The notes: generated by a model from the letters alone, not told the origin. 35,009 nucleotides of DNA from Stramenopiles sp. TOSAG23-6 (GCA_900128565.1 LT635947.1:1-35009); one strand, 5' to 3'; positions 1 through 20,700 are shown, counted from the stretch's first letter. Program-made: numbers and translations.

Positions 1-55
1 TAAATTCACAGAGAAAATATCAATTTTAGAAATGCAATAAATAATTTTCTGAAAG

Positions 56-970
56 TCATACCGTCGACAATAACCCAAAGACACCCAATAATAATATTGG
101 TGTAGCTGTTGATGACGTTGAAGGCAAACCTCGGAGACCACCCCAGCTCATAAAGATATTACAATTATTTGTCTCACACGCAGCACAATAATGTTCTGCT
201 GGTTTTACTAAACTCAGATTCCTTTCCTTGAGATACATTTTCCATTCTTCTTCTTTTTGATGTGTGAGTGTTACTTTCTCAAAATTGTCCATTGTACCAT
301 TACAATCTGAAACACCATAATCACCAGGTTCACAACGCCCAAACATAATTTCATGTTGTTTTCCTTTAAAGTTGACAAAAGAGAACTCGGTGATACATTT
401 CTTGCCTTGGTCGCATTCTTTTTCATCATGTGGAGGCACACGAAACTCGCCACTTAAAGTTGAGAGCCATTCTTCGTTTGACGCGTCATCATTTATGTGT
501 AGAAAATGATTACACGTCAATTTATCCAATTGTAAATGTTTTAGATTTGATTTCAATAGTTGACGAATTTCTGTTGGAATTTCAACAGATATGCCGTTGT
601 TGTACAAGCTCAAATATCCAAGCTTCGTTAGTAGACCAATTTGCGTTGGTATTGAAACAGATAGATCGTTGTTATCCAAGTTCAAATGTTCAAGATTTGT
701 TAGTTGACCAATTTCAGTTGGTATTGTACCAGATAGTTTGTTAGTTGACAATTCTAACTTCTTCACAACAGTGCGTTCATCGTCACAACTTACACCAAAC
801 CAATCGCAAACATGTTCCGTTTCCGTCTCCCAATTATTATTATTTTCCCAATTGACTCCACCAGTTGCCTCATAGAACGCTTCTAAAGCTTTCCTTTGTT
901 CTTCAAGTACTGCTCTACCTGTAGTACAATAAGTAATAAATACAATCAACGGTACAAATAATCTCGTCAT
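56..970 (-). CDS. Secreted leucine-rich-repeat protein (LRRNT_2 cap plus plant-type LRRs) with a Cys-rich C-terminal domain and probable GPI-anchor signal, ~304 aa
   Basis: ATG at 970 begins a hydrophobic signal peptide (MTRLFVPLIVFITYCTTGRA). It is followed by the cap ALEAFYEATGGVNW...CDWFGVSC and repeats of LxLxxNxLSGxIPTEIGQLTxL. The protein ends with CAACETNNCN, a Ser/Thr spacer and a hydrophobic tail. No intron needed. Confidence 0.85.
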   Translation of the reverse strand: MTRLFVPLIVFITYCTTGRAVLEEQRKALEAFYEATGGVNWENNNNWETETEHVCDWFGVSCDDERTVVKKLELSTNKLSGTIPTEIGQLTNLEHLNLDNNDLSVSIPTQIGLLTKLGYLSLYNNGISVEIPTEIRQLLKSNLKHLQLDKLTCNHFLHINDDASNEEWLSTLSGEFRVPPHDEKECDQGKKCITEFSFVNFKGKQHEIMFGRCEPGDYGVSDCNGTMDNFEKVTLTHQKEEEWKMYLKERNLSLVKPAEHYCAACETNNCNIFMSWGGLRGLPSTSSTATPILLLGVFGLLSTV

Positions 971-1145
971 TGTATTGTAAAAATGGTAGTTGCGTTTCGA
1001 AGGGAACAAATAAATAATAAACAAGAAAAGAGGACTAACGTCACTCAAAGGGTATCACGAACTGTGTTAACTTAACTTAATTTGCTACAACACGCGACAG
1101 GACGCGGCAGCTGCATAAATTAAAATCGAAAGTACGTTATTTTAC

Positions 1146-1175
1146 CCGGGTCCGGGTCCGAGGTCCGAGTCCGGG
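1146..1175. repeat. Short GC-rich (GTCCGR)-type tandem repeat in the divergent intergenic region
   Basis: ccgggtccgggtccgaggtccgagtccggg lies in otherwise AT-rich DNA between two divergently transcribed genes. Confidence 0.6.
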
Positions 1176-1382
1176 TTTATAAAATTTTATTTTTCTTGTT
1201 TTCAAACTTGCGCTCCTGTCCAACAAAACACACCACACTACCACATCACACACTAAATTTTGTTTGTAGAGTTTCTCCTTTCACACAATTTACGTCAAAT
1301 CAAAGATGTCATTCAACTGACATTGCAAACATGCAGATTCAGTTATACTAATTGGTAAAAAGCACATTTAAAAAAAGTGATT

Positions 1383-2949
1383 ATGGTCGTGCCATCATCA
1401 ACCTTAAAAAGATGTAGGTATCAACTCTACTTTAAGTTATCAATAATGGTGTGCGTAGCACTTGGTCTGAGTAATACCCCAGTTGAATCACATAGTGAAA
1501 ATTGCATAGAGACAGAAACATGCAGTACGCACATTCCTTTAAATTTGTTTATTCGGGAACCTTATGCTGAAGACCAAATTGCTGGTCCAGAAGTAGATAT
1601 ACACATTGATGTTCCTTCTAATTTTACAGTTGGCCCTATTGATGGCTTTATTTGTGTCCAACTAGATAAACAAAAAGAAATATGCGCTGAAAATCTTCCA
1701 TCAAACTCCTCAACTCTGAAAGCAAAATTGACTGATGTATCTGTTGGTCGGCACACTATATCAGCGTGGATATCAAAGGGTGCGTCAAACATAAAAATTA
1801 GTCAACATACAGTATCATTTGACACATTAGCTGTGACGAAGCCTTGGTGGGGTCCGTACAGATATAGAACAGAAAATACAACAAAAAGCACGGAACCTCA
1901 AAGCAGAATAAAACACAACATTGAACCTGAAATGACTTGCTCACGTGATGCAGTACACGCTGCGGCAGATCTTGAACAAATTCCGCATTTTCTTGGCCCT
2001 TCACCATCTCGAAAAGTTGCAGAATCTAAAAAAGCGCTTGTCGCATTGTTTGCTGGAAAGAACAATTTTCGTAAAGCTGACGAAAAAATCCGACAATTTG
2101 GTCTAGAAGCCTTCAGTTTTATATTGTTTCTATATGATTTTGCTGAATTAGATATCAAAACATTCCCTTGGCTATCAAAGATCCCAGTGGTTTTGGTTTC
2201 CGGACAAATGAAATGGTTTTATCTAAAACGATTTTTATCTCCAAAAATAGTTTGTCATTACAAGTATATCATAATTGTCGATGACGACTGTGATATGACA
2301 GAACTTGATTTGAAAGGGTTTGTAGATGATATGATGAAATACCAAATTCACATTGGACAACCATCTCACTCGCAAAACTCACATCAACCAATGTATGCTT
2401 TCATGATGAATTTCATTTTTTTTTTCATACCAAATTCCGTACCTAACAATTTTTTTATGTGACATATTTTTTCACCAATATGTACCCATTTCTAATTCAA
2501 AATCCTCAATTGTTGAAAGAAAATGTGGCTGGTATATGGGTAAACTTCATCGAATCTGGGCCACTTCTTGCCTTTTCTACTGAAGCATGTATGTTTTATT
2601 TTTGTTCAAATTCGATTTTTTTTCATACGAAATTTTGTACTTAACAATTTTTTTTGAAATATTTTTCCAAAACACATGGGAATGTTTTTGGCCATTGATG
2701 CAACCTGATTTAGTTTCTGGTTATGGTTATGATTTAATTTGGGTTCCTGCGTGTGCAAAACGTCGAGCGGCTGTAATGCAACAACATTCTATTGTTCATG
2801 TCAATACAGGTAGTGCTTCAAGTGTAAGAGCTAATTGGGTTCCCCGGGCTATCGGTGAAGCCTTTACACTATTTAAAAGGCTTGCCCCTTTCAGTATTTA
2901 TCCAATTGATCCAAAACCATTAGGTAAATTCTACAGTATTTCTAAATAA
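1383..2949 (+). CDS. DUF707-family (putative glycosyltransferase-like) protein; exons 1383-2392, 2482-2588, 2678-2949; ~462 aa
   Basis: KWFYLKRFLSPKIVCHYKYIIIVDDD, IGQP and the spliced NFIESGPLLAFSTEA|WECFWPLMQPDLVSGYGYD match recalled DUF707 motifs (KWWFAKRFLHPDIV..Y.YIF.WDED; FVE.MAPVFSR.AWRC.W..IQNDLVHGWGLD). Three ORF-track ORFs join in frame after two introns are removed. The start could instead be ATG 1446. Confidence 0.8.
2393..2481 (+). other. Non-canonical GT-AT intron 1 (89 nt), family member
   Basis: GTATGCTTT...CCGTACCTAAC...TTCACCAATAT. Removal gives ...HQPM-YPFL in frame. An ATGTA direct repeat makes the exact register slidable. Confidence 0.8.
2589..2677 (+). other. Non-canonical GT-AT intron 2 (89 nt), family member
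   Basis: GTATGTTTT...TTGTACTTAAC...TTCCAAAACACAT. Contains no AG. Removal restores the DUF707 motif EA-W-EC. Confidence 0.88.
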
Positions 2950-2958
2950 ATAATATGC

Positions 2959-3028
2959 TGACATCAAAGAAACTTTTATTAGAAATTGAATGACATCAAA
3001 GAAACTTTAACTTTTATTAGAAATTGAA
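2959..3028. repeat. Tandem duplication (32 nt + 38 nt copies) overlapping the stop codon of the minus-strand orphan gene
   Basis: tgacatcaaagaaacttttattagaaattgaa at 2959-2990 is repeated at 2991-3028 with a 6-nt insertion. Confidence 0.85.
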
Positions 3029-4540
3029 TACCTGTTAAGTTCTCCTCGTATATCATTCACAAGATGAAGAGGTAGGTTATATCTACTTGGTGAAGATGAA
3101 TTCATGTATTGAAGTTCTTTTGTAATCTGATTGAACATTGTAATTGGAGTATTATACCGTTTCGCATCAATAGATAATATTTTTCTAACATATTTGCTAT
3201 GAGTAGGATTCTCGGAAACCCTTGCGTTGTAATTATCTATACTTTTTTTGTATTTTTGTTTTTCAAATAAATTATTTGTTGAATAATTTTCTACAATAAA
3301 TTGATCTGCTATATATTTATTAAGTTCTCCTCGTATATCATTCACAAGATGAAGAGGTAGGTTATATCTACTTGGTGAAGATGAATTCATGAATTGAAGT
3401 TCTTTTGTAATCTGACGAAACATTGAAATTGGTGGGATACTGCCTTTAAACTCTAATCCCCTTTTTTTAGACTTTTCTACCAAATCAGAGGATACAGTAG
3501 ATTGATCTGTACTTGCGTAATTTGTTTTGGTCTCTATATATTGTGATAATTCATCGTCCGATTCATATATATTGTGAAAAATATTTGAAATTTGAAATTC
3601 GTTAGGTACAGAATTTGGTACAAAAAGAAAATTGAAATTATGATGAAAATGTACATTCATTATTAGATGATGAATGATAACTTGGTGGTCCATCATCATC
3701 ACTATCAATACTATAGTTTTCATCTAAATGGTGGACCATTTCTGGAGTTGTTTGAATAATTTTATCTTGTGTGGTCTCTCTACTATTCTCCTCTTCTTTT
3801 TTATATTTTGCCCGTTCAAGCTCACTATTTATTTTATCAATTCGATTTTCTATTTCCTCGCGAAGTCTTTTGTTATAAAATACAAGACACTTTTTATCAT
3901 CCTGGTATTTTATTCTAGCTTCTTTTTTAATAGACTCGCATACTGAACTGCCAAGCTCTTGTTCTGCTAAAGTTTGCCAATTTGATATCGCTGACTCAAA
4001 AATTTCAGTCATATTGGCTAGCTCAGTCGCATAAGAAGTATTTCTGTTTTTTATTGCTGTTTTGAGACTGGATAAAAGATGCCTGTGTTTGCTCATTGAT
4101 TTGCATAGTTCTTTATATGATAGTGTGTTAATTCTATTATTTGCTTCTAAATTGTCAACGCATTGAACGAGTCTGAGCAAACGTTCAGATATGAAAGGAC
4201 CAAGAGAGCTTTCATTTCGAAGCCAAGTCTTCAAATTTGTGCCAGATGCGAATGGTTCAATTCTATAACGAATTCTTTTTTGGTCGTAAAACTCGCTAGA
4301 ATGAATATCGCCTGGCTCAATTGCATGTAGTAATGCATTGATCTCGCTTTGGTCATTTATAAATTCCTGCTCAAACTTTGACCTTGCCGTCATTTTTGAA
4401 ACATTTTGAAAAAAACGTATATTCTCACATGAAAAATTTTTTGACGCTCCAAATAATTCCTGAGTAGCTTCACGACCCTTTCGATATACTGAAAGTGCTT
4501 TTGCTATGGTTTCGTTGCATTTGCTTTGAGTGGGAAACAT
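3007..4540 (-). CDS. Hypothetical protein, ~481 aa; exons 4540-3655 and 3566-3007; helical N-terminal half and a duplicated 40-aa C-terminal motif
   Basis: Two long ORFs (300 and 238 aa) join in frame (SNNE-Y-ESDD) once a family intron is removed. No homology recognised. Confidence 0.7.
3028..3432 (-). repeat. Two near-identical ~115-120 nt coding repeats 285 nt apart (about 3028-3147 and 3313-3432)
   Basis: Both encode PI(S/T)MF(R/N)QITKELQ(F/Y)MNSSSPSRYNLPLHLVNDIRGELN(K/R)Y with nearly identical DNA. Confidence 0.9.
3567..3654 (-). other. Non-canonical GT-AT intron 3 (88 nt), family member
   Basis: Minus strand GTACATTTTCATC...CTGTACCTAAC...TTCACAATATAT. An alternative in-frame AT end lies 6 nt further on. 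Confidence 0.75.
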
Positions 4541-4801
4541 ATTGAGGAAACTCGTTTAGGTTTCGTACTAACTGAAGCAAGCAACTTTTGAAATCACTGG
4601 ATCAACAAGTTTTGTTATATGAGTGACATGGCGACCTACCTGTGCCATCGCCATCGGCATCGATCGGAGTTTTTCATCAGCCGAAACCCACTTGAGAACC
4701 CCCTAACTACTAACCCCACCATCAACTTAGAGAGTATCAGGTAATAAAGTCAATAAAGTGTATTTGTTCCCAACGCCCCTCCAATCTTTATAATATTAGA
4801 T

Positions 4802-5574
4802 ATGGCATGGCGATGTTCAGGAGTGAGTAATGGGGAGTTGATCAAGAATTTAGTCGGAGCTTCCATAATACATACTGATCGAGTAATTCAAACAATGCTT
4901 GTCACTGACCGTCGTTTCTTTACTTCTTCCGATAGACCATACGACGACTCCCCACAAGAAATAGGATTTAACGCTACTATATCTGCTCCTCATATGCATG
5001 GATATGCTTTAGAATGGTTAGTGTCACATTTGAAGCCTGGAATGAAGTCGTTAGATGTTGGGTGTGGCTCTGGATACCTCACAGCTTGTATGGGCCAACT
5101 TTGTGGAAATTGTTATGGAATAGACCATATAAATCAATTAGTAGAATTAGCACGCTCAAATATATCTTCTTATAATCGTGATTTTTTAGACTCCGGCAAA
5201 GTAACCCTTCAGCAGACTGATGGTTTTAATGGTCTACCAGAAGAGGCTCCATTTGATGCAATTCACGTCGGAGCTGCTGCGCCTTCAATTCCTGTTGCTC
5301 TCGTCGATCAGTTGAAGTGTGGAGGTTTGTACGAAAAATTAGAAGAATTCGACCCTGACAGTTCTATTTTTTTGCACTACATTATGTACCTAACGAAATG
5401 TAAACTTGAAATAATTCTTCACAGCACATAATGATCATACCCGTTGGTCCAGTTAATGGTCATCAAGAAATATTAGCTGTGTCTAAGGACAAAGACGGTC
5501 ACGTGAGTACAAAATCTCTTATGGGGGTTAGGTTTATTCCTTTAACTAGTGTAGAAACGCAGATTAAAGGATAA
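4802..5574 (+). CDS. PCMT1: Protein-L-isoaspartate(D-aspartate) O-methyltransferase; exons 4802-5328 and 5430-5574; 223 aa
   Basis: MAWRCSG..N.EL, ATISAPHMH, LDVGCGSGYLTAC, APFDAIHVGAAA, then after splicing QLKCGG-L-MIIPVGP...LMGVRFIPLT. These are the characteristic PIMT motifs. Confidence 0.95.
5329..5429 (+). other. Non-canonical GT-AT intron 4 (101 nt), divergent family member
   Basis: GTACGAAAA...ATGTACCTAAC...TTCACAGCACAT. Removal in this phase restores GGLMIIPVG. The CAG at 5422-5424 gives a frameshift with either nearby GT (5325 or 5329). Confidence 0.88.
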
Positions 5575-5637
5575 TAAAATCTATAATGGGGGTTAGGTGT
5601 ATTCCTTTAACTAGTGTAGAAATTAGTAAAGGATTAT
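5511..5637 (+). repeat. Tandem duplication of the last ~65 nt of the PCMT coding sequence (5511-5575 and 5576-5637)
   Basis: aaaatct.t.atgggggttagg.ttattcctttaactagtgtagaaa-like sequence appears twice in succession. The second copy lies after the stop codon. Confidence 0.9.
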
Positions 5638-5734
5638 AAAATATTTTTTATTTTTCTTTCAAGTTTTTACTTCAGAATTTTACTTTATTTTTTTTTGTTT
5701 TTTTTACCAAATTTTGTAATTATAATAAAAACAA

Positions 5735-8700
5735 TTAAAAAAACATATGATCTTGTAAGCCTGTAGTGTCTGGTTCACTCGATGAATAATATTCTTCTTT
5801 TGCTTTTTCATCCATTCCACTCCAGACAGTCTTATCAACTTTTTCTTTCGTATCTTCTGTTATTTTTTCTAATTTTAAATCATTTACAACATTATCATCT
5901 AATATTTCGTCGGGGGGTGGTCCAGCGTCAATTGACTTCTTTGTCTCTTCTATAATACCTTTATCCTTTGCATTTGACTCGGAAGTATCAAGGTTTGATC
6001 CGCGATTTTTTCTTTGTCTCGATCTCCTACGACGAGATTTTGATTTGGTACTGTCCCCTGCATTATTAGTAGAAGAGCGAGACTTTCTGCGCCTAAATTT
6101 TCTACCAGATCTTGAGGAAATCCCAGACTTGCGGCGAGAAATACTACCTCCGGCTTGATCAGTTGATTTTGATGCATTTTCTAGATTGGTACTACCCTCA
6201 GCCTTATTGCTAGAAGAACGATGTTTTCTGCGTCGAGAGCGCCGAGACTTGCGACTAGAAATATCACCCCCTGCTTGATCAGTTGGTTTTGATATATCTT
6301 CCCCTGCCTTGTTACTAGAAGAACGAGACTTTCTGCGCCTATATTTGCGCCTTCTATCTCCTTTGCCAGAGCTAGAGGATCTTTTGGACCTTTTTTTGGT
6401 TGTGTCGTTCACTCGAGGATCGTCTACTACAGGGACAACTTTCCTTAAAGCTTTGCGTTTTGCCAGTGTTTCTTTACGTTTTATGGCACCTGCTGATATC
6501 TCAGCCATTGCTGCTTCGCTTACGGTGCTAGCTTTACTTATCATCTTACTAAAACGATTACGTTTTTTTCCTGCATCCTCCTCCTTTTTCTTCTTTGTCT
6601 TTGATTGAAGCATTTCTTGTGCCCGAATCAAAACAACTCTAATCCAAGGTAACCTTTTTGATAAAACGAGTCCGCACCAAATCAACAGGAAGCAATTTCC
6701 ACCAATGAGAAATAAACCTAATTGCGTCTGTTCATTTTTTCTTCTGAATGCATTTGCACTTATCAAGAGATTTGAGTAAAAACTACAGAATATTGCAAAA
6801 AGGAGAATAAGCTGAAGATGAAAGTCTACTAAGTGTCTAAATGGGTCTACTAGAGCACACAGAACAAAGAACATCACAGATATGACAACTGCAACAGCAT
6901 TACGTGTAATCCCACCTGGAAGGGCGGCAAGCATACCAGTCAACATTGCCTTTCGAATTAACTCCACAAATTCATACCACCACACTTCATGTCTATAACT
7001 AATGAATATTGATCCATACGTTTTTGTAATTCGGTAGTGAAGGATTCTCAAATCTTTGTTGTACAGAAGTACTTCGTGCATTTCATTTCCCATGGCTTCT
7101 TCTGCTATAAGCCACACTCGATTGGGCCATAAAATACAAAATCCTATCACTGGCACTCCAATAACATACACAATAATAGCGCTGATTGCCACGATTGACA
7201 ATATTCTATATTGACTATCGTCACAACTGACAGCAAGATCCGCAACAAGGTAATTACTTCCATTTACCTCAAAACAATTAAATACACGAAAACATCTCAC
7301 AGAAAAGGATGGATATATGCAAAACATCACTAATATAAGAAGTCTCTTTGCATTCATTGTTGCGCTTGCTTTTGTGAATTTTACTGTATTTCCAGATAAG
7401 TTCTTTAGACCGTGCGCTGTTTTGAGCGCCAGTAGAATAACGAAAAATATCAGTGGCATTACCATCATGTATGCATAAAATTTTGTCGCAAAATCGGATG
7501 AAAAATCACATGGACTTACATATGCTGCAAACCGCATTATATCAAAATTGATTACATGGAAGGATTCAATAAAAGCAGTATAGTTTTCTGGGTATTCTTC
7601 ACCAGAAGCATATTGCATTTGGGATAAAACTTGGGTATAACTCAAAACTAATTTTACCGTTGCGCCCAATTCTGCCCAATATTGCCCTAATAATCCATGC
7701 TTGTCGTCCACACTGTGTAATCGTTTTCTCTTTAAAATTTCTTCCTTGGTCAAAACAGATTTTTTCTGTTCCTCGTGCAATGCTCTAATGAGTGTTAGTC
7801 GATCTTTACGCGAACCCATACTTTTCCGTGCTAATGTATGTCGTAGTCGTGATTCCTTTGCTAATTGTGCTGCTTTGCGCTTCATTCTCATTTCTTCTAG
7901 TTTTGCTTGGTAACTTTCAGTGTGCATAGTTTGTGATGTCCATATAATATTTGGAGTTTCAATATCATTTGTATTGATTCCTTTAGTCATTGAACTAATA
8001 CTTTTTATAGAAACAGAGCGCAATGCAGCTTTTCTAATTTTGTTACGAGTTGCTTCCAACTTTTCAAGGTAACCATCAGCATAGTAACCTTTGTCCGCTT
8101 TCGAAACCATCACACAAATTGATACAAAATAGGAAAAGAAACCAAGCAAAATACAGAGAATAATCATACCTTTTGTATTGCCTGTACTCTCTTGGTTTTC
8201 GTTTTGGCATTTTGTACAATGTTTACCATCAGACTGCAGTGCCCAACCTTGCATACATAATGCACAAAGAATTCCCATATGCCCTTCACGACAATTCTGC
8301 CAGTTAGATGTCGAATTTGCCCTAATAGGCCCGGCTTCACAGTTGTCGGGTGTTAAACATTCACGTAGAGTACAATCGCGATATGCTTTCTGGGATAATG
8401 GATCAGATGCACATTTACAAGAAGAACACGGGTCGTCATTGCAATCATCTGTAATTTCTTTTGGGCAAAACCAGTCTGGATGTTGTACTAACAATTCTGG
8501 GTCTTGCCAGTAACCAACAACTCGTTCATTCACAGAATTCGTTTCACTGCAGCTACCATTAATATAAGGATTTCCATTACATGGTACAATGTGGATACGT
8601 CGATTTACTGCATTAGTTTGTAAAGCTAGACCAAATTTGTCACAACGCGCACCCGGTGGACAAGGTTGGCATTTTTGAGCCCATGTATCCTTTCCAACAA

Positions 8701-11700
8701 GCGCTTCAATAGGTAATGTTAATGCGGTTACGGTATTATTTGATTCTCGACAATTGTATTTTTCCTGGTCTATGCGAAGGCCGTGTGTAGCGCCATCAGG
8801 TCTATTACCATTACAATCATCCGCATATTCAAAGTATTTTGCGTTGAAATATTCATCAGTATACAAAGCTTGAAACTTAGTTGTCGATGGACATTCATAA
8901 GCGCTCGCTTTTGACCCACCAGGGTCGTTTTTCTGGGCAAGAGCAGCAGCTGTACAATCTTTACTCCAAGAACCTTGCCAATACTCTATACTGCCTCCAA
9001 GATGAGCGTAGTACGATGCAGGACATTCGCATCGGCTCCGGTCACCTCCAATTTGTTCCCCAGTCACAAGCTTGACTGAGTTCCAAACGGGGCACTCTAA
9101 AGCTTGGAATTGACCAGCAGCACAAAATTCAATACCTTTGCATTTTACTTTACTAGCAGATGTCATACAATAATAGCCAGCAGGACAGATACTTGGATTA
9201 CGCCAGCCAGCGGTACTATCTTCGAAGTCTGTACGCTTGCCACAGTAAGCACCTGGCTCAGTACATTCCATAACAGTTTTTGAATTCGGACAATAAGAAC
9301 CTTCTGGGCACAAAACCGGTTTTCCTGTCCCTGGAATACAACGATATGCTTCTCCGTGATATGTCTCGCCAGTTGCAATAATTCTGTTTGATGGAGACCG
9401 CATATGCGGAGACCAAGTACCCACTATTTTGTTTGTTTTCACAACTACTTTTGAATTATTTTCATCATCATTATTTGCATCATCATTACTTGCATCATCA
9501 CTACCTGCATCATCACTACCCGCATCATCATTTGACTCTATGCCATTTTCGCACTGACTCTGTGTTGTCCGGGCTTGATACCAAATACCAGCGTGCTTAT
9601 ATTTTCCAATAGGTAAATCTGCCTCGGTCCAAAGTAGAAGCTCGCAATCAATAACATTACGCGGAGAAGATATCCCTCGAACATTCCAAATACCTGAAAT
9701 ACTGCAATCTTTTATCTCGCGACCATGAATTTCACGCATTGCAGAATCATAGCATTTCTCATTTTTCCAAGTACCACCAATGGAACAAGTCGTTTCATCT
9801 CGACTACGATGGATGAATGTATAATTTCCGTGTCGCTCATCCTCCACGGCACAAAAACTTTCTCGAGTTAAAATAGTCATATGATCATTTGCATCAACAC
9901 ATACATCGATACCAACATGAATTGCCGGGCCAATATTTGAGCCAATCATACATCCATGAAAAGGAAAGTCACATGAGTACTTAAACTTGCCCTGTTCACA
10001 ATAGAAACCTTCTGGGCATAATACGGGCATTGAAGTACCTTCAGGGCAATACCAAGATGGAGGCTGAATCGGATGATCCTCTAAAACAAGATTTTTATCT
10101 TTGACTTGGTCTGCTGACGCATTTGGATCTAATACACAAGGTTTTTTGAACTCACCTTCTTCACAATAAAATCCCGCAGGGCATACTTCTGTTTTCGCCG
10201 CATTTTCACAAAAGTATCCTGCTGGACACTTTATAGGTGTAATCGTCTTTTCTGGACAAAACCAAGACACGGTTTCATTTTCAAGTTTAGTTTTTGTTTT
10301 TTTATTTGCCTCTTCATTATATATACAACTTTCTTTTACGTTTGAAGATTCACAAAAAAAACCCGCTGGACATTTCACTTGTTCAAACGAACCTGCGGGG
10401 CAATAAAATCCATTGTTTTCGCAACTTCTCACTTCCCTTGAGTTCTTACATCTGTTCCCAGCCTTGCACACATGTATTTTGGAAAAATATTTCAAAAAAA
10501 ATCTAAAAAAAATGTTAGGTACAAAATTTCGTATGAAAAAAAATCAAAATTGAAAAAAAAATAAAACATACATCTGGTGCACCTGAACCGGTCGGACAAT
10601 ATCTAGCAAATGCATCGACAGACCATATTCCGATTTCTCCATCTGGTGAAGACTCGCAACTCTCCGGAGTGGGTCTATCAATTGTCAAATCGACACCTTC
10701 TACAAGACATCTTCCAAGTTTGGGTTGAAGATTTTCAGATAGGAAAATATTCCTTTTTCTTTCACCAATCATAATATACTCTGCATCTTCAATCTCAAGA
10801 CATGCTCGTCTATCAACGTCTGAAGATAATATAGTACCATCAGACTGTTGACAGACTCCATAAAAATGATTGTCGTAGGGAAAGTCACAAGAGTATTTAT
10901 ACTTTCCTTCTTTACAGTAATATCCCTCAGGACATCTATTTACTCTCATTTTTTCTTTCGTCCTGTATTGCCCATGATGCCATGCACATTCATAATCCCC
11001 CCTGAATTTAGGATTCCATTTTGCACCAATTTCTTTACACAAAGCTTTGTCTGTAACATCACGAATTACACCTTGGCGGTTTATACATGTGCCAGTGTCT
11101 TTAACGTGCCAATTGCCACCAGCAGATGTACAGGAATATTGATCTGTTTTCTCTTTCATTAATGATTGTGCATCCGATGCCACACAGACATCTATATTTG
11201 CGATATCTTCGCCATCAATGATACAATATTCGAATTCTTCATATAATGAAATATCACCTGTAGCAGGAGGACAAAACCATGCAATAGCATTTGAATTTTC
11301 AAGTAAATTACTGTCCATCTGACCCGTAACTGGATCCACTTTAAAAACACAACTTTTCGGAAATGCCCCATCAACACAATAAAATCCACTTGGACAAAGC
11401 ACTTTTGAGTGTGCGCCAGGGCATACATGTGACTCTGGACAAGTTTTAGGAAATACTGTGCCTTCAGGGCAGTAATACTGCTTATCTTCTGCGATGTTTT
11501 CTTGATCTACTTGAGAATCCCAAATACATATTTTTTTTTCCGATGCATTTGAACAATAATACCCAGCAGGGCATATTTTAGGACTATATGAACCTTCTTC
11601 GCAGTAATTAGCATGTCCATCACCCCCACAGGATCTCAGTACACTAGATTTCGGACAGTAAGAGCCCTTTGGGCATATTTTGGGTACCAACGATCCTTCT

Positions 11701-14700
11701 GGGCAGTACGGCGCTTTTGGCTCTGCCGTCCAGGTTCCGACACCCGCTGGATTTTTTGGATCTTCGCAAAGCATTGGTGTACCCCTTACATTAGTAACAT
11801 CTGTTCCATTAGCTAATTTACATCTACCAAGTCTAGTATTGGGATCGCTATCCATTTCATATTCCCAAACTCCACCAAACGCAACGCATGTTGACCAATT
11901 AGAAGCAATTGCACCTCGACACGCGCCATGAATATAAGGAAAATCGCAACTAAGCTTGACGTTTCCTTCTTTGCAGTAAAACCCTCCAGGGCAAATGGAC
12001 GGTGTAATTGTGCCTTCGCCACAGTAATGTTCTTTCCATGTACACGATTGATTTTTTTTACACTCTACATCAGATGTAATACTCGTACACGCCGAATTTC
12101 CTTCACAATGAACAAGATTCATATCAATATCATCACTGTTGTACTTACACGTTGCCTTATGCTTGTTTCTGGCACAATAAAATCCAATAGGACAAGGAAG
12201 TTTTACTTTTGCATCTTTACAATAAAATCCTTCTTCACATGATGTAGGATAAGACGAATTAGATGGACAATACCAACTTTCTGATGGGGAATCAATTAAA
12301 TTGTCTTCAATGTCTGGATTCCACACACAAGATTTCTTTAAAGATGCTAGTTCACAATAGTAACCTGCTTCACAATTGAGTGCTCTTCTTGAACCCGCAG
12401 GACAGTATAGTCCAATACCCGAATCGCATTGCCGTCTCTCATGAGATGACCGACAGAAATAACCCGCAGGACAGAGTGACATACTTTTTGATCCTTTTTT
12501 GCAATAGTATGCATCCATTTCAACACCAGTATTAGCAGCAGGATACCAAACACCAGAGGGTCCATCGCGAATGCGGCTATATGATATAACCCCTACTCTT
12601 TCTTTTAATGGACAACTAGACTCTGACATTTGTGTCCGCAAATTACATGGGTGTTCACCTTCAGCAGAGAACTTCAACTGGCGATCAAACCCAACACATT
12701 TTATATCTTTATCGCATTCTGACTGACAAAATTGCACTGTGCCATTGATGGTTTCAGACTTACATGTTGACATATTTAGAATGGTGTGTCCAAAATTATC
12801 CATACTCCTGTACGTATTATTTACCCATGTACCGCGGGCACCAACACATCCTTCTTTGCCGCTACCTTTTGAATGCCAGTAATTATTTTCACCAACACAC
12901 AATTTTTTATTTAATGAATTAGTGGAAGAAACATGGTCTGAAAATGTTACGCATGTATTAAGATCCGTAATATCTTCATCACCAATCATACATTTTCCTA
13001 CACCCCAAACACACTGCATTTCAGTCGTGCGTGACGATATTATTTCTAATTTCGATGCACTCAAACAAAATTCCGGATCACATGAAATTTTCTCAGCCCC
13101 ATCTTTACAATAATATCCCGCCGGACATTCATCAGGTGTAGAATTCCCTCCAGGACAAAAGGAAGCATCGTCTTTGCATGCATTTTGATTTCCGTTGCCC
13201 TCTCCGCTGGAGCTGCTGTAATGGCATAAATTTTGTTTTTGTATGTTAATTTCAGATTCATCGATAATGTCAGAGTCCCATTCACAACTTCTCTTAGAAA
13301 CTGAGTCTAAGCAGTAGTAACCTCTTGGACATGGCTCATTCAAAATGGACCCTTCAGGACAGTATTCGCCCGGTTGGCATTGCTCTTTGATTGTAGAATG
13401 TGAACAATACATTCCTGCTGGACAAGGCAACGGTAATTTCGTACCACTTGGGCAGAAAAATGCAATTTCTGACCCGTCTGATTTCCTTTTGATACTCCAC
13501 ACAAACCTTTGTATGTCATCTCCTTCGTTTTCTTCTTCGTTTTCTTCTTCGTTTTCTGCGTCATTTGCTGATTCACATGCAGTCTTTGACGGGTACGTAT
13601 CTGTAACATCAACTAGCGTACCACTAGATACTTCACGTGTGCATTTTCCTATTGGTGAATTTGGGTGTATCATTTCTTCCCATATCGCGTTCACTGCATT
13701 ACTGCTAGATTCGCTAAACGCAATGGCCTTACATCCCTCTTCATCACTAGCTTTTTCATGCCATTTACCCTTTCTAGCTTCACATGTTGCCTTATCATTG
13801 CTGTCGGTCAAAATACTTAAACGTTTAACTGCACTGGTTGTACCATCTGCATCCTCAACTTGTTCTGTTATCTCAATGATGCATGCATTAAGCATGGAAA
13901 TATTTATTTCGCCAATCATGCATGCGTGATGATACGGATAATCACATGGATATTTAATATTGTCGTTGCAATAAAACCCGGGAGGACAAAGTTTAGGCTC
14001 ACTTAGGCCAGGGTGATTTTTTTCGATTACAGATTGGTCCACACGACAGTAAAATGCTGGAAGAATTTTTGATTGACTAGAATCATCATTATTTTTCCAC
14101 TCTAGATTCGGATCTTTATCGTCAGGGTCATATGTGCAACTCTTTGGGGCAATATTTTCTTCGCAATAATATCCAGAAGGACATGTCTTTTTAATCTTTG
14201 CTAATATGCACTGAAATCCTGCAGGGCATTTTATTGGACTTTCAGTTCCTTCTGGGCAATACCATTTGAGTTCCTGGGGCGCGATTTCGAGATCTGGGTT
14301 TTCGAGATTTTTATCTGGATTAGCATCGTCCCAAATGCAGGAATTTGAAGAACCAGATGTTAAACAATAACTACCCTCACTACACAAACTTTCTTCCCTC
14401 GAACCACTTGGGCAATATTTAGCTCTATTCGCAACACTTATGCAAGGTTTTTTTTCAGATGGAGTTGGACAGTAATGTTCTGCTGGGCAATATTCGCTTT
14501 TTTGAGAATTAGCAGGGCAATATAAAGCCTTTTCTGTATCATTACTACATGCAATCTGTAATTTTCCTTCTTGGCAATAGTGTCCAATTTCACATTGTTG
14601 AGGAGCACTGCTTCCCTCCTTACAGAACCAGGCATTCAGACCTACACGATCCTCATCTGGTCCCTTCAGCAATATATCGTCATCTGACTCATTATAAATA

Positions 14701-17700
14701 CACTCCTTTGGGGGTAACCCACGAGCACAATAAAAACCAAGCGGACAGTCCCTTTCAAACATTGCACCAATGCATGTAGAGCCCGCTGGACATGGTTTTG
14801 GTATGGTACTACCTTCCTCACAAAGCCAACTATAAGAAACGCTTTTCAAATTCTGTTCACACGTCATTTTGTTTACAGCTGAACTAGAACAATAAGTATT
14901 GTCCCATACACACGAATTCATCTCACTCGGAGAACGACAATACATTCCCGCTGGACAAGATGTTTGTATTTTTGAGCCTTTTGGGCAATATGCCCCAATA
15001 TCTGAACACAACATTCTTTCTGTAGAGGAGTTACACGCGTACCCAGCAGGACATATACCCCACGTTGATGAACCAGTGGGACAATATGGTGCCGTACTAT
15101 CATTTATGTGTTCTTGAATTCCATTTGGATCGTAATACCATCTAGTCCCATATTTAAATTCAAGACCACGATCTGTTATTGTTTTATCACAGCTTTCTTT
15201 AGTCTTAAAAAGAGAAAAAAACTTTCCATTGACAAAACACCCTTCAAACGGCCCATCACATCTATATTTGAACTTTCCTCTTTTACAATAATACCCAGTC
15301 GGGCACTCCGCTGGAGTTTTATTGCGCCCTGCGCAATACCACCCAGTTTGATCGTCAAAAAGTCGATTTTTTTGCTGGCTAGCTTTTATTCCACCCATTG
15401 AAGCAATTTGTTTATTCCACACACATTGATCTTTCATCGACGCTTCCCAGCAGTAATATCCGGGTGGGCAGTCCCCCGGTGCTCTAGAACCTTCTTCGCA
15501 GTAATCACCATCGGTGTCACAAGAAAGTTTTGAGGCACTATGAGGACAATAAAATCCTTTTTCGCAAACCCTTGGCGATGAAGATTTTTTTCCACAATAA
15601 AAAGCGGTTGTAGTATCGGTTTCGTCAAATGGTGAATTTTCATCAGGGTTTTCCACCACATCAAATGGACAATTGATGGGATCGTCAGGATTTCTTCCAA
15701 GATTTGCATAATACTGTCCTTCAGGGCATTTACTTTCTGAAATACCATGTAAAATAGTTCCCTTATCTCGACTGACACAAACACTGAGGACAGATATATT
15801 CACTGGTGGAATCCATTCTACTGTGGCATTTGGATGATTTTTTGCTAACATGGAACAACTAGTCTCGGTCATTCCTCCTCGAATTGCAATCTTACATGTG
15901 CCGTTTGCTACTGTTGTAAAAAGCATGTCGCCCTGATCTATGCATATTTCTTCATCCTCTGATAAAGGAACTTGTATCCGTCCCATAAGTAGACAAGCAC
16001 CAGGAAGGATACATGCTTTGTCATACGGAGCGTCGCATGGATACATATACCTTCCTCCTCTGCAATAGAAACCTTCAGGACATACTGAGGCAACAGAGTT
16101 TCCTGGGGCGCAGTAATCACCCGGTGCTTCACACCGTTTGGGGTTAATTCTGCCATCAGGGGTATCAGGACACTTAAATCCTAACGGACACTTAAGACAA
16201 TATTCCGCATTGATTTTATCTTTGTTAAAATACCCTTGTTCGCATGATACACAAATATTGTTTTGTACAAAAGTACCACTCCCACACACTACAATTGTTT
16301 CCCCTTTACTATATTCACCGTCGAGATCATTCGTTTTATCACCAATTAAACCATTTGTTGCACGAATCTTTATTTGGAATCTACCCGCAGTTTTTATTTC
16401 CTTTTGAGAAGACTCAAATATTTCGTCACGTTTGCAACCAACAATGGAAGTAAGCGTACTAGAAACGACGCCATCGATGACTTCATAAGCCTCTAGTATT
16501 TCTTCTTCTGGTTCGCTACCAACTGCTAGTTTAAATTTTGTTATACCGCGACCACCATCATCAGGGCATTGGAAACGAATTCTTATATATGTTTTGTCGT
16601 CTCGTCGCGTAAGTGAGACCGCCTTCTCCTCCCCCTTCTGTCCGTCACCACCACCGCCCTCGCCGCCACCGCCCTCACCGTCGCCCTGACTGTCTCCGTC
16701 AGTGTCTTCGTAAACTCCGTAAAAAAGTGCAACAGCACGTGGGGGTTGTAAATTCATTGTGACTTTTAAAGCACCAGAGTAATATGCTTGTGAATCATCA
16801 CCATCGTCTATTTTGTAATCATTTATTGGCTTTACTCGTACCTCAATACCGGTTTTATCTTCCATATTTCGGATAATTTGAATCCCGCTAGTGCTATGAA
16901 TGCATTCATCGCCCTCCCATGTGCCACTGGCATTAAGGCACCCTTCTTCACCACTACCTTTTGAATGCCAGTAATAATCACTATCGTCATCATCAGTACA
17001 CTTGTCTTCCTCTTTATTACTAATCTCAGGAGGTCGCAATTCTACGCATGTGTCGCCAATTTCCTCTGTACCAATCGTACATGTTGCTTCTGAATTGATT
17101 ACAACTGATCCCCATATGGCCCCGGCTTTAAGACACGCTTCTTCACCACCACCTTGTTGATAGAAGTAGAAATCAGGAGCACCACATGATTCTTCATCTT
17201 TTTTATCAGCATGAATCACGGGGTTTGGTAATAGTACGCATTGATTAAGATCAGTAATTTCTGTCTCGCCAATCATACATTTTCCTAGTGCGTTGTTACA
17301 TGCTTCCTTCCAACCATTGTCACCATTAAAATCCGTTGCGCCTTCAAAAGTATACGAAAAATGATATGTTAATACCCGATTGAGAGACAAGTCAAGACCA
17401 CTAACTTCAGGGGCTTTCACAACAAGGGTGTCACCAATTGCAACAATTTGCTCGGGCATAGCATTTCGTTTAGTAAAGTGTGATTTCCTTAAATATTCGC
17501 ATTTGTTTTCAAAAAATACAATAGTCCAATCATTTTGGTTTTCTGGGATTTCATTTAGCCCAATACAATTGTAGCAGTCTGATAACCCTGTTGGAGTTTC
17601 TTTTGTTTTGCATTCACGTGTTGTCCATGTATCTGCTTCCGACCTGGGTTTTGCAACTTCATGAAAAATTTCAATTTTTTTATCTCCATCTTCAAAGTAA

Positions 17701-20700
17701 TCATTTGAAAAACAAACATTATAGGTATTGTAATGAAATGTTTCTGCAGGAGTCACAACAAGTTTCGTAATTTTAGTAAAATCTTCAGAATACTCATTAT
17801 TTCTTGTCAAGTATTTTAATTTTTTTGTAGATTCTCCTAGACCAAGACTATCGTCATCATTTTTATTTTCATATGTAAGATCAGAGCAATTCTTTAATGT
17901 AAACACAATGGTTGGTAGGTTATACCAGTCTTCACTTAAGTTTTCGGGATCCTGATCGTTAACGGGCAAAAGATGCTCAACTTCAAACAATATTTCATAT
18001 TCACCTGGATTGCCGTCAGTAGGAATCATATTCCAGCTTTTTCGTGGCAATGGTACGGGTATACAAAATTGCTTCCCTAAGCCACCAATATACTGTCCTA
18101 CAGAGCAGACTTTACAATGTTTTTGAACATTATCAGAAGGATATACATTAGTACCTCGAGCAACAGTCGCAAACTCATCAGAGTATCGACCAGTGTCACA
18201 CGGCAAACATGCATTTTCATCTCTTCCAATATAAGGTAAATACCTCCCCTTGTCACACGCAATACAAGATTTTGAAGCTAATCCACTCTGCCACTTGCCT
18301 TTTGGACACTGAATGCAATTTTCCTCAAGACGTCTATTTTCATCTTCCTCCATATATCTTCCTCCTGGGCATGGTGTACAAACTGTTTGACCATGTGTGC
18401 TATATTTACCAAATCCACATTTTTGGCAGTCGTTATATTCATTGCAGTTTTCTTTCGAGAATCCTGTAATAGTATCATCAAGGTAAAATCCGGGATCACA
18501 TTGAACGCATTTGTCTTGACTGTCTACACCTTCGGCACTACTCCATCGTCCACCAGGACAAGTAATACACGCAGTAATTTCCCCTGGATTTTCACTATTT
18601 GGCTGTGAAGAATGATCGCTAGCATTACCATTACTTTGTAAATACGTTCCTGCGGGACATGACTTACAAATTGTTGGCGAGTTTGCGCCACCGAATTTTA
18701 TTTCTAGTCCTAATTGTTTTACATTTTCTGATCTGTTATCAGTATCATCCCATTTGTAATCCGAAAGCATATATGTACCACCCGGACACACAATACAGTC
18801 TGCCAACTCATCATGCATGACAGCAGTTGTACTATCCGTGAGGTAAGATCCTACAGGACAATTTATACAACTTATAACTTCCACGCCATCATCGTCAAAT
18901 TTCGTAGCCCTGAAACCCAGCTCCGTTGTTCCATCTGCTTCACCCCAATTTCTGGGTGAATCATTATATGTTCCGGGAGGACACGTGTAACATTCGCCAG
19001 GATTTGAAACTTTTCCATATCTTCCAGCGGGGCACACTTTGCAAACACTCAATTTTTCAAAATTTTTGCGTGTCGGATAACAATTTTCTGGACTTTCAAT
19101 TGGACAACGCTTTAACATACTGTTATCTGATGGACACGGAAAATCTTGCTGATTTGTATCTGGAACTGTAACTGTTGGTGTTTCTGTGCAATTTCCGGAA
19201 TTGATGATGGTAATATTCTCAACTTTACCATCAGGTACACTTACATTGTACGTAGCTTCAGGAATTGTATCGCAAGAATCAGCCTGGAAGTCTAAAGAGC
19301 CATTGGAATACCCCTCACCCGGCTTTTCAATGTATATAATAACCACTTGGTTATCAATGAGACTTGCTCTCAGCTGGGCTTTGTGGCCTTGTTTGCCGCA
19401 CTTTTCGTCCGTCTCTGTTAAATCATACCAATACCACTTTGAACCAAATAGACATTTTTTCTTACGATCTGTTTCTGGTTCATATGGGGATGCCACAGCA
19501 AATTTACCAAGTGAGCACAATCTACAGTCATACGTAGAATTCTCAAGTTGAATTCTTCTGTATCCCTGTGGGCATTCTAGATGCATGATATCCACAGTAG
19601 AAGGATTATCTTGGGATATTTCCAATATATCGTTATAAGTCCCTACAGGGCATAAAATACAATTTTCTACACTTGTATATCCTGGTGGGGCATTATTCTC
19701 ACCAATTCCTGGGGCATATTTACCCGCAGTACATAACTTACAGTCATTTTCTGATGTTGATCCATCGGTATCCAAATAGGTACCTGCATGGCATTTTATA
19801 CAGTCATCTTGTCTTGGTGCTCCTTCTATCCCACTATACCTGCCTTTATCACAATTTATACAATAAATTGAGCTGACGTGAACAGACACATCATTTACGC
19901 CATCAATGGTCTTGTTTTCTAAATATTTTCCTTTTCCACATGCATTACACGACGAGCTCTGTGTCTCTTCTACATACTGACCAGCTTCACAAATTTCACA
20001 CGGTATATCTGAGCTTTCCGAGTACATACCTATTTCACACCCAGTACATGATATTGCACCAGGAAGGTCATGAGTATTTGTTTCAAAACCAGCTTCGCAA
20101 GGAGTGCATTCTGTTTTCCCAGTAAGTTCCTGATACTCTCTTAGGACACAAAGGCTACATTGAGATTTTCCGACTTCATCGGCATAACTACCTGCTGCAC
20201 ATTGTTTGCATGTCTGACTTGCACCTGGAGAGTAAAAACCGACTTCACAAGCAGTACACGAAGTAGCACCACCAGGGTCTTCGGTGTCTGGATTTGTAGG
20301 ATACGTTTCTGTAATCCAACCAGGATTACACGTCTTACAGCTATCTGCGTATGCATGATTTGTATGATCGAGTGGTTCTATTAGGTCGATGTATTTACCA
20401 GGGGGGCATTTTGTACAAGTTTCTTTCGGATAATTTTCGCTATAATGCCCTAGAGGGCAAATGGCACAGGTAGATACTGTACCAGGTACCCATTTTTGGC
20501 CCGCAGAACAAGATTCGCACGCAGAATCCTTAGAAGCAGTTCCTGGGATGAATATTTGTGAAAATGTATCACACTCTTCCTTTGTTTTAAGATGTTTTGT
20601 ACACATGACGGAACCCCAATCACTAGTAAAGTGATTTGCTGGGCACTGGCGGCATTCACCAAAAGCATCGGAAGCATCCAAGAAACTAATCTCAACATAT

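Follow-up and report, generated by a model that had tools for sequence, protein, structure and literature searches.

A repeated, introner-like intron family with GT...AT ends in an uncultured marine stramenopile

Bursts of intron gain are at present best explained by introners. Those described, among other lineages, from Micromonas pusilla, Aureococcus, dinoflagellates, Chrysochromulina, Florenciella and Acanthoeca resemble the introns reported here in being short, similar over their full length and housed in unrelated genes; they are high in copy number, as the present family probably is, and they too are spliced from RNA, biased towards the sense orientation within genes and divided into subfamilies of unequal abundance (PMC9860276, in its accessible part). 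Two differences emerge from the same part of that source: the ends of those introners are canonical or near-canonical, whereas AG terminates none of the ten introns studied here, and many of those families carry duplications and inverted repeats, which are not demonstrable in these ten. A 2025 introner survey, as far as its available text goes, accepted AG and AC as 3' sites and discarded unfamiliar ones unless they were verified (PMC12130899).

The introners of Amoebophrya A25 and A120 are likewise repeated, depart from GT-AG, carry direct repeats of 3-5 nt at their boundaries and belong to a marine protist; the portion of PMC7789003 at hand also gives them no preferred terminal dinucleotides and inverted repeats of 8-20 nt that form hairpins. 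By contrast, all ten of our introns begin with GT and close with T, a CTAAC-type branch motif is conserved in them and no hairpin is predicted. In appendicularian tunicates (Fritillaria), most introns across the genome depart from the GT/AG rule, and presumably it is a U2-type spliceosome that removes them (PMC13326754 and PMC12621601, both in excerpt). That is another lineage and another intron family, and the introns described here have kept the 5' GT and lost the 3' AG. In the non-canonical introns of tunicates it is mostly the 5' end that varies, while AG is kept.

Introns of hemiascomycete yeasts and Ostreococcus have a GTATGT-like donor and a TACTAAC-like branch motif. They are short and uniform in architecture, as ours are, with similar donor and branch motifs, but they share signals only and end in AG, whereas our introns have homologous interiors and terminate in AT or GT. 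The rare GT-AT introns of the U12 (minor) class have the same terminal dinucleotides as ours; they are a rarity within that class, compared with 9/10 here. Minor-class introns have their 3' site set by how far it lies from the branch site, not by AG; their consensus combines an RTATCCTT-like 5' site with a branch site that precedes the 3' end by about 10-20 nt. Our introns differ from this consensus at both places: their 5' ends read GTAYRTTTT, without the ATCC core, and the branch-like motif stands 33-43 nt, not about 10-20 nt, from the 3' end. Our literature search returned no description of GT-AT introners, and among the papers listed GT-AT occurs solely as a rare category; a stramenopile single-cell paper mentions introns in its methods only (PMC5778133). 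The use of AT or GT in place of the near-universal AG is an unusual natural variant of splice-site recognition.

Ten copies of one element in four genes

The window, that is, the whole 35,009-nt stretch of DNA analyzed (Stramenopiles sp. TOSAG23-6, LT635947.1), is about 90% coding, with about 3 kb of non-coding sequence, and an Rfam search of it returned no RNA gene. It contains 10 introns of 88-101 nt (numbered i1 to i10 along the window), spread over four unrelated genes and lying in the sense orientation relative to the host gene in every case (10/10, p=9.8e-4). The plus-strand gene at 1359-2949 (3 exons) encodes a DUF707-family protein (Pfam PF05212, E=3e-23 in exon 1 and 7.4e-5 in exon 3) and holds i1 (2393-2481; 89 nt, phase 2), placed by reading frame, family alignment and an nhmmer match at E=8.2e-15, and i2 (2589-2677; 89 nt, phase 1). 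The minus-strand gene at 3007-4555, read from its ORFs as two exons, gave no Pfam match above threshold; it holds i3 (3567-3654; 88 nt, phase 1), for which a 94-nt alternative is likewise GT...AT and in frame, with a 6-nt repeat at its flanks. A protein-L-isoaspartate O-methyltransferase (PCMT) is encoded on the plus strand at 4802-5574 (2 exons; Pfam PF01135, E=1.8e-51, and an orthologue alignment), with its best named matches in animals and early fungi (50-56%), and is interrupted by i4 (5329-5429; 101 nt, phase 2), the most diverged copy. The fourth gene, at 5735-33129 on the minus strand, would encode a giant cysteine-rich membrane protein of about 8,900 codons in 7 exons; it was assembled from five consecutive minus-strand ORFs, has a signal-peptide-like start at 33129 and an N gap at 32828-32864, and PF07699 is precomputed for one of its read-through ORFs, P0122. 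Its introns are i5 (10472-10571; 100 nt, phase 0), i6 (23987-24079; 93 nt, phase 1), i7 (27626-27717; 92 nt, phase 1), i8 (28943-29034; 92 nt, phase 0), i9 (32212-32303; 92 nt, phase 0) and i10 (32520-32614; 95 nt, phase 0). All introns of the window run GT...AT except i6, which is GT...GT and ends in ACGT.

The window's ten introns are all copies of one short repeated introner-like element. A full-length alignment takes in 10/10 of them, across all four genes, with pairwise identities of 0.46-0.84 and a mean of 0.625, compared with a mean of 0.424 (highest 0.475) in 20 controls in which the interiors were shuffled and the 5' end, branch motif and 3' end were kept. The original prediction, that near-identical introns occur in unrelated genes, is borne out on each point: i2 and i5 align end to end, with 84/89 aligned positions identical (94%) and 11 gap columns, and the stretch that it saw shared between i3 and i7 (74/88 positions identical) is present as a 20-mer around the branch-like motif. 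Further pairs are comparably alike (i3/i8, 74/88 identical; i8/i9, 71/88), and an nhmmer profile recovers all 10 copies at E <= 4.8e-10, with the best score for i7 (E=1.2e-16). Over the window this profile found nothing beyond the 10 introns at E <= 1, and no antisense or intergenic copy; the best sub-threshold match, at 5674-5718 on the plus strand (E=1.9, 3.9 bits), is too weak to count. A two-block pattern that matches four of the window copies, with 0 matches expected from 100 shuffles, occurs elsewhere at four loci, two each among metagenome and genome contigs, and the element has no resemblance to any of them; a 17-mer searched for exactly in viral contigs turned up at 6 loci, each in an unrelated context.

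From an independent seawater DNA metagenome run, X3, 5267 contigs were placed on 20 kb, 1466 of them at least 99% alike and 695 fitting two places; thousands match at 92% or more. Word depth reaches 152,723 at position 10493, compared with ∼9.6 in the flanks, and the binned depths are 16,362 for i5, 3,374 for i1/i2, 155.6 for i3 (against ∼9) and 14.6 for i4. Assembly breaks fall in i2 and i5, members of the high-copy subfamily, and not in i1, i3 or i4: within i2 the contigs end at 2609 and resume at 2650 (word depth 28,797 at 2615), and they reach 25-27 nt into the i5 element from either side and then stop. The contig matches and these breaks therefore indicate high-copy, near-identical DNA rather than shared short motifs. 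Summed word depth inside i2 and i5 is 10^3-10^4 times that of the flanks, a ratio that should not be read as a count of copies and to which related organisms may contribute; expressed as summed contig depth, the element is present at roughly 10^3-10^4 copy-equivalents in this marine protist. The uneven depth from i5 down to i4 fits subfamilies that differ in age, in keeping with the several insertion waves that had been proposed.

Removal from RNA and splice signals

Intron i5 is removed at the RNA level and present in the DNA. PolyA RNA contigs from three runs of two studies (X5, X6 and X9; 2368, 6418 and 4996 nt) skip it with a gap of 100 nt at 10470-10569 plus 0-4 nt, flanked by 255-nt sides and with a placement ambiguity of 4 nt, while the joined form occurs in 0 contigs of DNA run X3. 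An artefact of de Bruijn assembly is an unlikely source of this joint, because its two sides share just 4 nt and because it is absent from the DNA run. The 4-nt ambiguity permits an AT...AC reading for i5 alone.

Precise removal from RNA combined with presence in DNA was found for i5, the one intron of the ten with an RNA check. Contig placement covered positions 1-20000, a stretch that ends before i6-i10; RNA contigs cover much of 5631-19457 in the giant gene, with gaps, and cover is thin over the DUF707, unnamed and PCMT genes, where no joint for i1-i4 is among those listed. Protein searches for spliced forms returned solely read-through ORFs of unspliced contigs: P0121 reads through i1 and P0001 through i4, both of which are retained in DNA contigs, and P0122 reads through i7 from an independent 2262-nt contig. 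Two of the three source contigs equal X3 DNA contigs in length. Splicing of i1-i4 and i6-i10 is predicted from reading frame, family alignment and one orthologue alignment.

The ends of the ten introns are uniform. The 3' end is AT in 9/10 and GT in 1/10 (i6), never AG (0/10), so that T is the last base in all ten, and the 5' GT is invariant. Each copy opens with GTAYRT, followed by TTT(T)CAT, and carries 33-43 nt from its 3' end a candidate branch-point motif, TAYYT(T)AAY with a CTAAC core, which places the branch adenosine (by motif) 33-36 nt from the end in 9/10; a T-rich tract follows, and the 3' end is YRT, usually ACAT. Set against U2-type introns, the 5' GT is there in 10/10, as are the branch motif and pyrimidine tract, and the 3' AG in 0/10. 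We infer that a U2-type spliceosome removes these introns and has come to recognize U instead of G as their last nucleotide.

Reading frame and orthology point to the same ends. Taking the GT start together with the family-aligned AT end keeps 9/10 introns in frame (p=3.6e-4), and in 8/10 copies no AG follows the branch motif at all. In i5 a T-run is followed by an AG, 31 nt before the 3' end, that is skipped in RNA; the AG of i4, 5 nt before its 3' end, is out of frame and is taken as unused. PCMT orthologues have a single residue between the conserved QLKCGG and MIIPVGP blocks, and only removal of the 101-nt i4 yields that spacing. Other boundaries were considered and rejected: a GT-AG solution for PCMT would delete a conserved block or break the frame, AT...AC is possible in 3/10 introns only, and TG...CA fails for i1, i6, i8 and i9. 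Separately, i6 has an in-frame stop inside, a variant branch motif and a junction repeat of 6 nt, and a 2-nt shift would give it GT...AC ends. The one hint of recent gain is that the relative P0003 stops following P0002 six residues upstream of the i4 site.

Junctions, termini and origin of the family

At the exon-intron junctions, the exon and the intron that follows it end in the same two bases in 6/10 cases (AT in i1, i2, i3, i5 and i10; GT in i6), with longer matches in i2 (CAT), i10 (ACAT) and i6 (ACGT). The remaining copies (i4, i7, i8 and i9) keep AT although the exon ends in TT, GT, CC or GC; the junction repeat is 1 nt in i8, where exon and intron ends are unmatched, and i9 has none. 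The match between the two ends of a locus averages 3.2 nt, compared with 2.8 nt in 90 mismatched 5'/3' pairs (n=10; permutation p=0.078, or 0.056 and 0.94 when the left and right sides are taken separately), and at position -2 own pairs match in 6/10, where other pairs would predict 4.7. The junction "duplication" looks more like a consensus of the whole family than a repeat specific to each locus. The exon base before the donor is T in 8/10 (p=9e-4), and AT precedes it in 5/10 (p=1.2e-3; background 0.094), an enrichment that a preferred insertion site, a 2-nt duplication and a constraint from splicing would explain equally well. End-to-end duplex energies are -8.1 kcal/mol for i5, -6.7 for i2, -6.5 for i6 and -5.7 for i7, and -1.9 to -4.2 for the other six; i5 alone has a terminal inverted repeat of 6+4 nt, which is imperfect. 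RNAfold gave no stable hairpin for any of the 10 introns (z -1.05 to +0.77), so that stable end pairing is lacking, and the borders are conserved rather than variable. The original prediction had counted the junction matches correctly and had described weak inverted ends, which are indeed present. Its larger proposal survives in part: a family of near-identical sense introns, present in DNA and, for i5, spliced from RNA, agrees with introners, but the idea that a duplicated NT target supplies the acceptor finds no support in the form proposed, with AT at the end of 9/10 copies regardless of the exon and no significant excess of own over mismatched pairs.

We consider it quite probable that these are genuine introns removed from RNA, belonging to one high-copy introner-like family in which every copy has its own splicing signals, GT...AT is joined and upstream AG is ignored. 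Each copy would bring a 5' GTAYRT, a branch-type motif, a T-rich tract and a 3' YRT; because this signal set recurs in each copy, with the branch spacing kept in 9/10, splicing would join GT to AT (once GT to GT) and pass over upstream AG. It is improbable that the introns are instead immobile and alike only because the lineage, like hemiascomycete yeasts or Ostreococcus, requires long and strict splicing signals in its short AT-rich introns. Such signals would explain why each conserved block falls on a splicing element (5' site, branch site, T-tract or 3' site), why the branch-to-3' distance is tight (33-36 nt) and why every intron of the window shows these features, as a genome-wide rule would give; they do not explain why the interiors are alike as well (0.625 vs. 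0.424), why i2 and i5 are 94% identical over aligned positions, or why contigs match in the thousands at 92% or more (1466 at 99% or more) with the assembly breaking at i2 and i5 and not at i1, i3 or i4. Removal outside the spliceosome, whether as end-pairing introns of the euglenid, diplonemid or Amoebophrya type or by DNA elimination like that of ciliate IESs, is very improbable. The non-canonical termini and the short direct repeats across the junctions would suit it, and the accessible parts of the sources describe repeated non-canonical introns with direct and inverted repeats in Amoebophrya (PMC7789003) and pairing-based introns in hemistasiid diplonemids (PMC12621601). Against it, none of our introns has a stable fold, end pairing is weak in most copies, and GTAYRT and CTAAC are conserved, unlike the variable borders given in those parts of PMC7789003 and PMC12621601; DNA elimination is excluded in the sampled cells, since the i5 element is in the DNA and missing only from RNA.

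The family may have spread recently by insertion into (A)T|G-like sites, either through DNA transposition with a 2-nt duplication or through reverse splicing; no empty site or autonomous partner was seen. The transposition route takes the element to be a miniature DNA transposon with GT...AC termini whose insertion at NT, mostly AT, leaves a 2-nt duplication, with the last two intron bases coming from its 3' copy, and we regard it as doubtful. It draws on the 6/10 end matches, which include the only non-AT case (i6, with GT on both sides and ACGT over 4 nt), on the six copies that, minus their final two bases, end in AC, the inverse of the GT start, on the imperfect inverted end of i5 (6+4 nt, -8.1 kcal/mol) and on AT at exon positions -2 and -1 in 5/10 against a background of 0.094; co-option of a splice site from a duplication is documented for introners in the available part of PMC9860276. 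The match shows no significant specificity for the locus, however (3.2 vs. 2.8 nt, p=0.078; 6/10 vs. 4.7 at position -2), four copies keep AT after exons ending in TT, GT, CC or GC, the junction repeat shrinks to 1 nt in i8 and vanishes in i9, six of the ten copies lack inverted ends, and the window has no antisense or intergenic copy, though just ∼3 kb of it is non-coding. Rather unlikely in our view is the other route, in which excised intron RNA is reverse-spliced into transcripts and the process is completed by reverse transcription and recombination, a mechanism put forward for fungal introner-like elements. This route predicts neither duplication nor inverted ends, and is in line with a duplication that is not significant and with the lack of stable structure; 10/10 copies are genic and sense, each has the complete signal set, and the exon consensus (A)T|G mirrors the intron's own 3' junction, as look-alike target sites would give. 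Families without duplications and inverted repeats are reported in the accessible text of PMC9860276, which also argues that most introners move as DNA. No direct evidence speaks for reverse splicing, and, because the window is ∼90% coding, sense-only genic copies are equally expected from selection on DNA insertions.

Meaning for splicing and intron gain

The GT...AT-ending introner-like family probably consists of introns that spread themselves. Surveys built on annotated GT-AG or AT-AC junctions would overlook such a family, gene prediction on this organism's genomes and in marine metagenomes will fail at every intron unless GT...AT is allowed, and the family's repeats break short-read assemblies inside genes.

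A more far-reaching proposal is that one introner family makes up essentially the whole intron complement and that 3' recognition by the spliceosome has moved from YAG to Y(A/G)T; we put it forward tentatively, as a possibility that falls just short of an even balance. If true, GT...AT would be the standard intron of this eukaryote and AG would be actively ignored, which would imply that AG-reading factors (the U2AF small subunit, second-step factors) have been altered or lost and that G/G has given way to a G(+1)/U(-1) contact. A family that carries the full set of signals and ends in AT or GT would mean that the spliceosome can be retuned at its most conserved 3' position, and the lineage would be a natural system for the study of how the 3' splice site is chosen, whether through its distance from the branch site, the nature of the last base or proteins that read AG.

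A family of ten short introns in four genes

Introns were located by a search for a branch-like motif, followed by inspection of breaks in the ORFs. The ten introns obtained (i1 to i10, numbered by position) lie at 2393-2481 and 2589-2677 (i1 and i2, + strand, in the gene of a DUF707 protein, 1359-2949, +), at 3567-3654 (i3, - strand, in the gene of an unnamed protein, 3007-4555, -), at 5329-5429 (i4, + strand, in the gene of protein-L-isoaspartate O-methyltransferase, PCMT, 4802-5574, +) and, within the gene of a giant cysteine-rich membrane protein (5735-33129, -, read from five consecutive ORFs), at 10472-10571 (i5), 23987-24079 (i6), 27626-27717 (i7), 28943-29034 (i8), 32212-32303 (i9) and 32520-32614 (i10), all on the - strand. 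Every one of them separates two long ORFs that belong to a single gene, and all ten are in sense orientation relative to the host gene (p = 9.8e-4).

The ten introns can be aligned from end to end; pairwise identities are 0.46-0.84 (mean 0.625). In 20 controls the interiors were shuffled around three fixed parts (the six bases at the start, the branch motif and the four bases at the end); the mean identity was then 0.424, the highest mean 0.475 and the highest single pair 0.628. A profile built from the ten recovered all of them in the window (E ≤ 4.8e-10), and the next match there, with every filter disabled, had E = 1.9. The family takes in every intron recognised in the window, and no GT-AG intron was seen among them. 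The observation in the original prediction, of near-identical introns in unrelated genes, was confirmed, and each of its specific statements holds: over 89 aligned positions, i2 and i5 are equal at 84 (with 11 gap columns); the 20-mer quoted for i3 and i7 occurs in both, which are equal at 74 of 88 positions; and weak inverted ends are present in i5 and i2 and, to a lesser degree, in i6 and i7. Its reading of the family as introners is supported in its core. The best sub-threshold profile match, not significant (model positions 17-53, E = 1.9, 3.9 bits), was also found by a repeat finder; it lies at 5674-5718 (+), between the PCMT stop and the giant-gene stop, and may be a decayed element fragment in non-coding DNA.

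The surrounding DNA is AT-rich (GC ∼0.38), dense in genes and eukaryote-type; the remaining genes encode an LRR protein (56-1054, -) and a proteasome-chaperone-like protein (33488-34456, -). Sequence words of 2000-11000 are shared with two small DNA runs from one organism, the probable source, and also with seawater metagenomes and 14 RNA runs, from seven studies in total. The product of the giant gene (∼8,900 codons) is a cysteine-rich protein with PF07699-type repeats; its start resembles a signal peptide, and a multi-pass membrane region lies close to the C-terminus. PolyA RNA contigs cover most parts of 5631-19457, with gaps, and the first exon of the giant gene contains 37 N at 32828-32864, either a scaffold gap or a withheld stretch. 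A small tandem duplication at the 3' end of the PCMT gene copies the final 47 nt of its coding region (5511-5557 and 5576-5622, 94% identity); the second copy lies 65 nt on, right behind the stop codon. The last exon of the unnamed gene carries a 120-nt internal duplication (3028-3147 and 3313-3432, 93% identity, 285 nt apart), which repeats a C-terminal peptide block, and short repeats at 2950-3030 separate it from the DUF707 gene. In seawater DNA and RNA contigs, joints that go back, with raised depth, were found at 689-742 in the LRR gene, and small insertions, with raised depth, near 16636 (16630-16645, a low-complexity coding repeat); these point to repeat numbers that vary among strains.

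Removal from RNA and the ends of the introns

We aligned Logan contigs from four runs to positions 1-20000: two polyA RNA runs that belong to the same study, an RNA run from a different study and a run of seawater DNA. Intron i5 is removed: one long contig in each RNA run (2368, 6418 and 4996 nt) skips exactly 100 nt, with 255-nt sides and a placement ambiguity of 4 nt. This is the sole junction of the ten verified by RNA, and it demonstrates excision of i5 at the RNA level. No joined contig lacking i5 was found in the seawater DNA run, where single-copy contigs reach 25-27 nt into the element from either side and then break (end at 10496, start at 10545). The same break occurs at i2 (end at 2609, restart at 2650), while i1, i3 and i4 are crossed by contigs. 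ORFs of independent contigs read through i1 (P0121), i4 (P0001) and i7 (P0122), confirming that these introns are retained in DNA-like contigs from elsewhere.

The RNA joint of i5 is compatible with GT...AT, TG...CA, AT...AC and two more placements, of which only GT...AT applies to nine of the ten introns. If the introns start at GT, the 3' end given by the family alignment keeps the frame and reads AT in nine introns (9/10 against a chance of 1/3, p = 3.6e-4); the exception, i6, ends in GT (ACGT). The last intron base is T in all ten, preceded by A except in i6, where G precedes it. In PCMT relatives, exactly one residue separates two conserved blocks: this spacing is reproduced only by removing 5329-5429, as GT...AT or as TG...CA one base to the left. 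The closest PCMT relatives, P0002 and P0003, show 63% and 62% identity; the best named matches are from animals and early fungi (50-56%) and are not diagnostic of taxon. P0002 and P0003 are the same up to ...ALVAQ, beyond which P0003 enters unrelated GC-rich sequence. P0003 resembles an ORF read from unspliced genomic DNA of a GC-rich relative, and the point where it leaves the full-length form, P0002, lies six residues upstream of the i4 site, which suggests that the intron may be placed differently there.

AG is absent downstream of the branch motif in eight copies; in i5, all three RNA contigs pass over an AG that follows a T-run 31 nt before the true end, and use of the AG that lies 5 nt before the end of i4 would break the frame. 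The distance from the branch-motif adenosine to the intron end is 33-36 nt except in i5, where a 10-nt insertion is present and the distance is 43 nt.

Junction repeats, possible copy decay and abundance

The exon-end dinucleotide equals the intron-end dinucleotide in six of the ten introns (AT in five, GT in one), and the match is longer in i2, i6 and i10. It had been proposed that the acceptor derives from a duplicated insertion target, and we compared 5'/3' pairs from the same locus with shuffled pairs, following the logic of published introner surveys as given in the available text of PMC9860276. For the ten real pairs the contiguous match averages 3.2 nt, compared with 2.8 nt for 90 mismatched ones (by permutation, p = 0.078 overall, 0.056 on the exon side and 0.94 on the intron-start side), so that a duplicated target is not demonstrated. 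Because the own-locus match is not significantly above that of mismatched pairs, the apparent duplication is mostly family-wide consensus. The exon ends in T before the donor in 8/10 introns (p = 9e-4) and in AT in 5/10 (p = 1.2e-3), the downstream exon begins with G in 6/10 (p = 0.012), and the AT intron end is independent of the end of the preceding exon. This arrangement mirrors the AG|GT...AG|G symmetry of canonical introns, T replacing G, and it is compatible with a 2-nt duplication, an insertion preference or a splicing constraint; only in i6, where ACGT stands on either side, is there a hint of a locus-specific repeat. The inverted ends are short in this family, and none of the ten introns folds more stably than its own shuffles, with z-scores between -1.05 and +0.77. 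The family may have spread as a miniature DNA transposon or by reverse splicing.

Donor positions 4-5 are CG in four introns (i4, i6, i7, i10), TG in three (i1, i2, i5), CA in three (i3, i8, i9) and TA in none, and the 3' end is ACGT in one copy (i6) and ACAT in five. These variants look like CpG decay of an ancestral GTACGT...ACGT master, a pattern that would fit many old copies decaying from one master and may hint at cytosine methylation of the family repeats.

In the seawater DNA run, 5267 contigs matched the 20-kb stretch, 1466 of them at least 99% alike and 695 fitting two places. Summed word depth, which is not a copy number and to which other organisms may contribute, reaches 152,723 at 10493, 42,321 at 10512 and 28,797 at 2615, against ∼9.6 in the flanks; per bin it is 16,362 for i5, 3,374 for i1/i2, 156 for i3 and 14.6 for i4. 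Such contig depths should be read only as indicating that the sample holds thousands of near-identical copies, in subfamilies of very unequal abundance.

Relation to known introns and mode of removal

Introners are a well documented class, and the family corresponds to their core definition as worded in the available text (PMC9860276). The nearest non-canonical case is Amoebophrya, whose repeated introns are described, in the portion of that paper at hand, as having no preferred terminal dinucleotides and as depending on 8-20 nt hairpin-forming inverted repeats (PMC7789003); unlike these, the present family has conserved, unstructured ends. Pairing-dependent introns with variable borders are also described for hemistasiid diplonemids and euglenids in the accessible part of PMC12621601. 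According to the available sections of a 2025 introner survey, AG and AC were accepted as 3' sites and families with unfamiliar sites were dropped unless confirmed by transcripts (PMC12130899); by that route, therefore, GT...AT introners of a single-cell genome that lacks annotation would go unreported. Among the papers searched, none combined 'GT-AT' with 'introner', and 'GT-AT' appears there only as a rare category, mostly minor-class; the family may have been described before in other wording.

The signals of the family comprise a donor, a branch-type motif, a T-tract and, at a fixed distance, an end other than AG. The donor and branch motif resemble the yeast consensus for these signals and the hallmarks of U12 introns are absent, and we infer on these grounds that removal would be by a U2-type spliceosome. 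The family stands out most for its non-AG 3' end, as seen in one window and at one RNA-verified junction (i5). The lineage would take Y(A/G)T as a 3' splice site, perhaps selecting it by its distance from the branch site.
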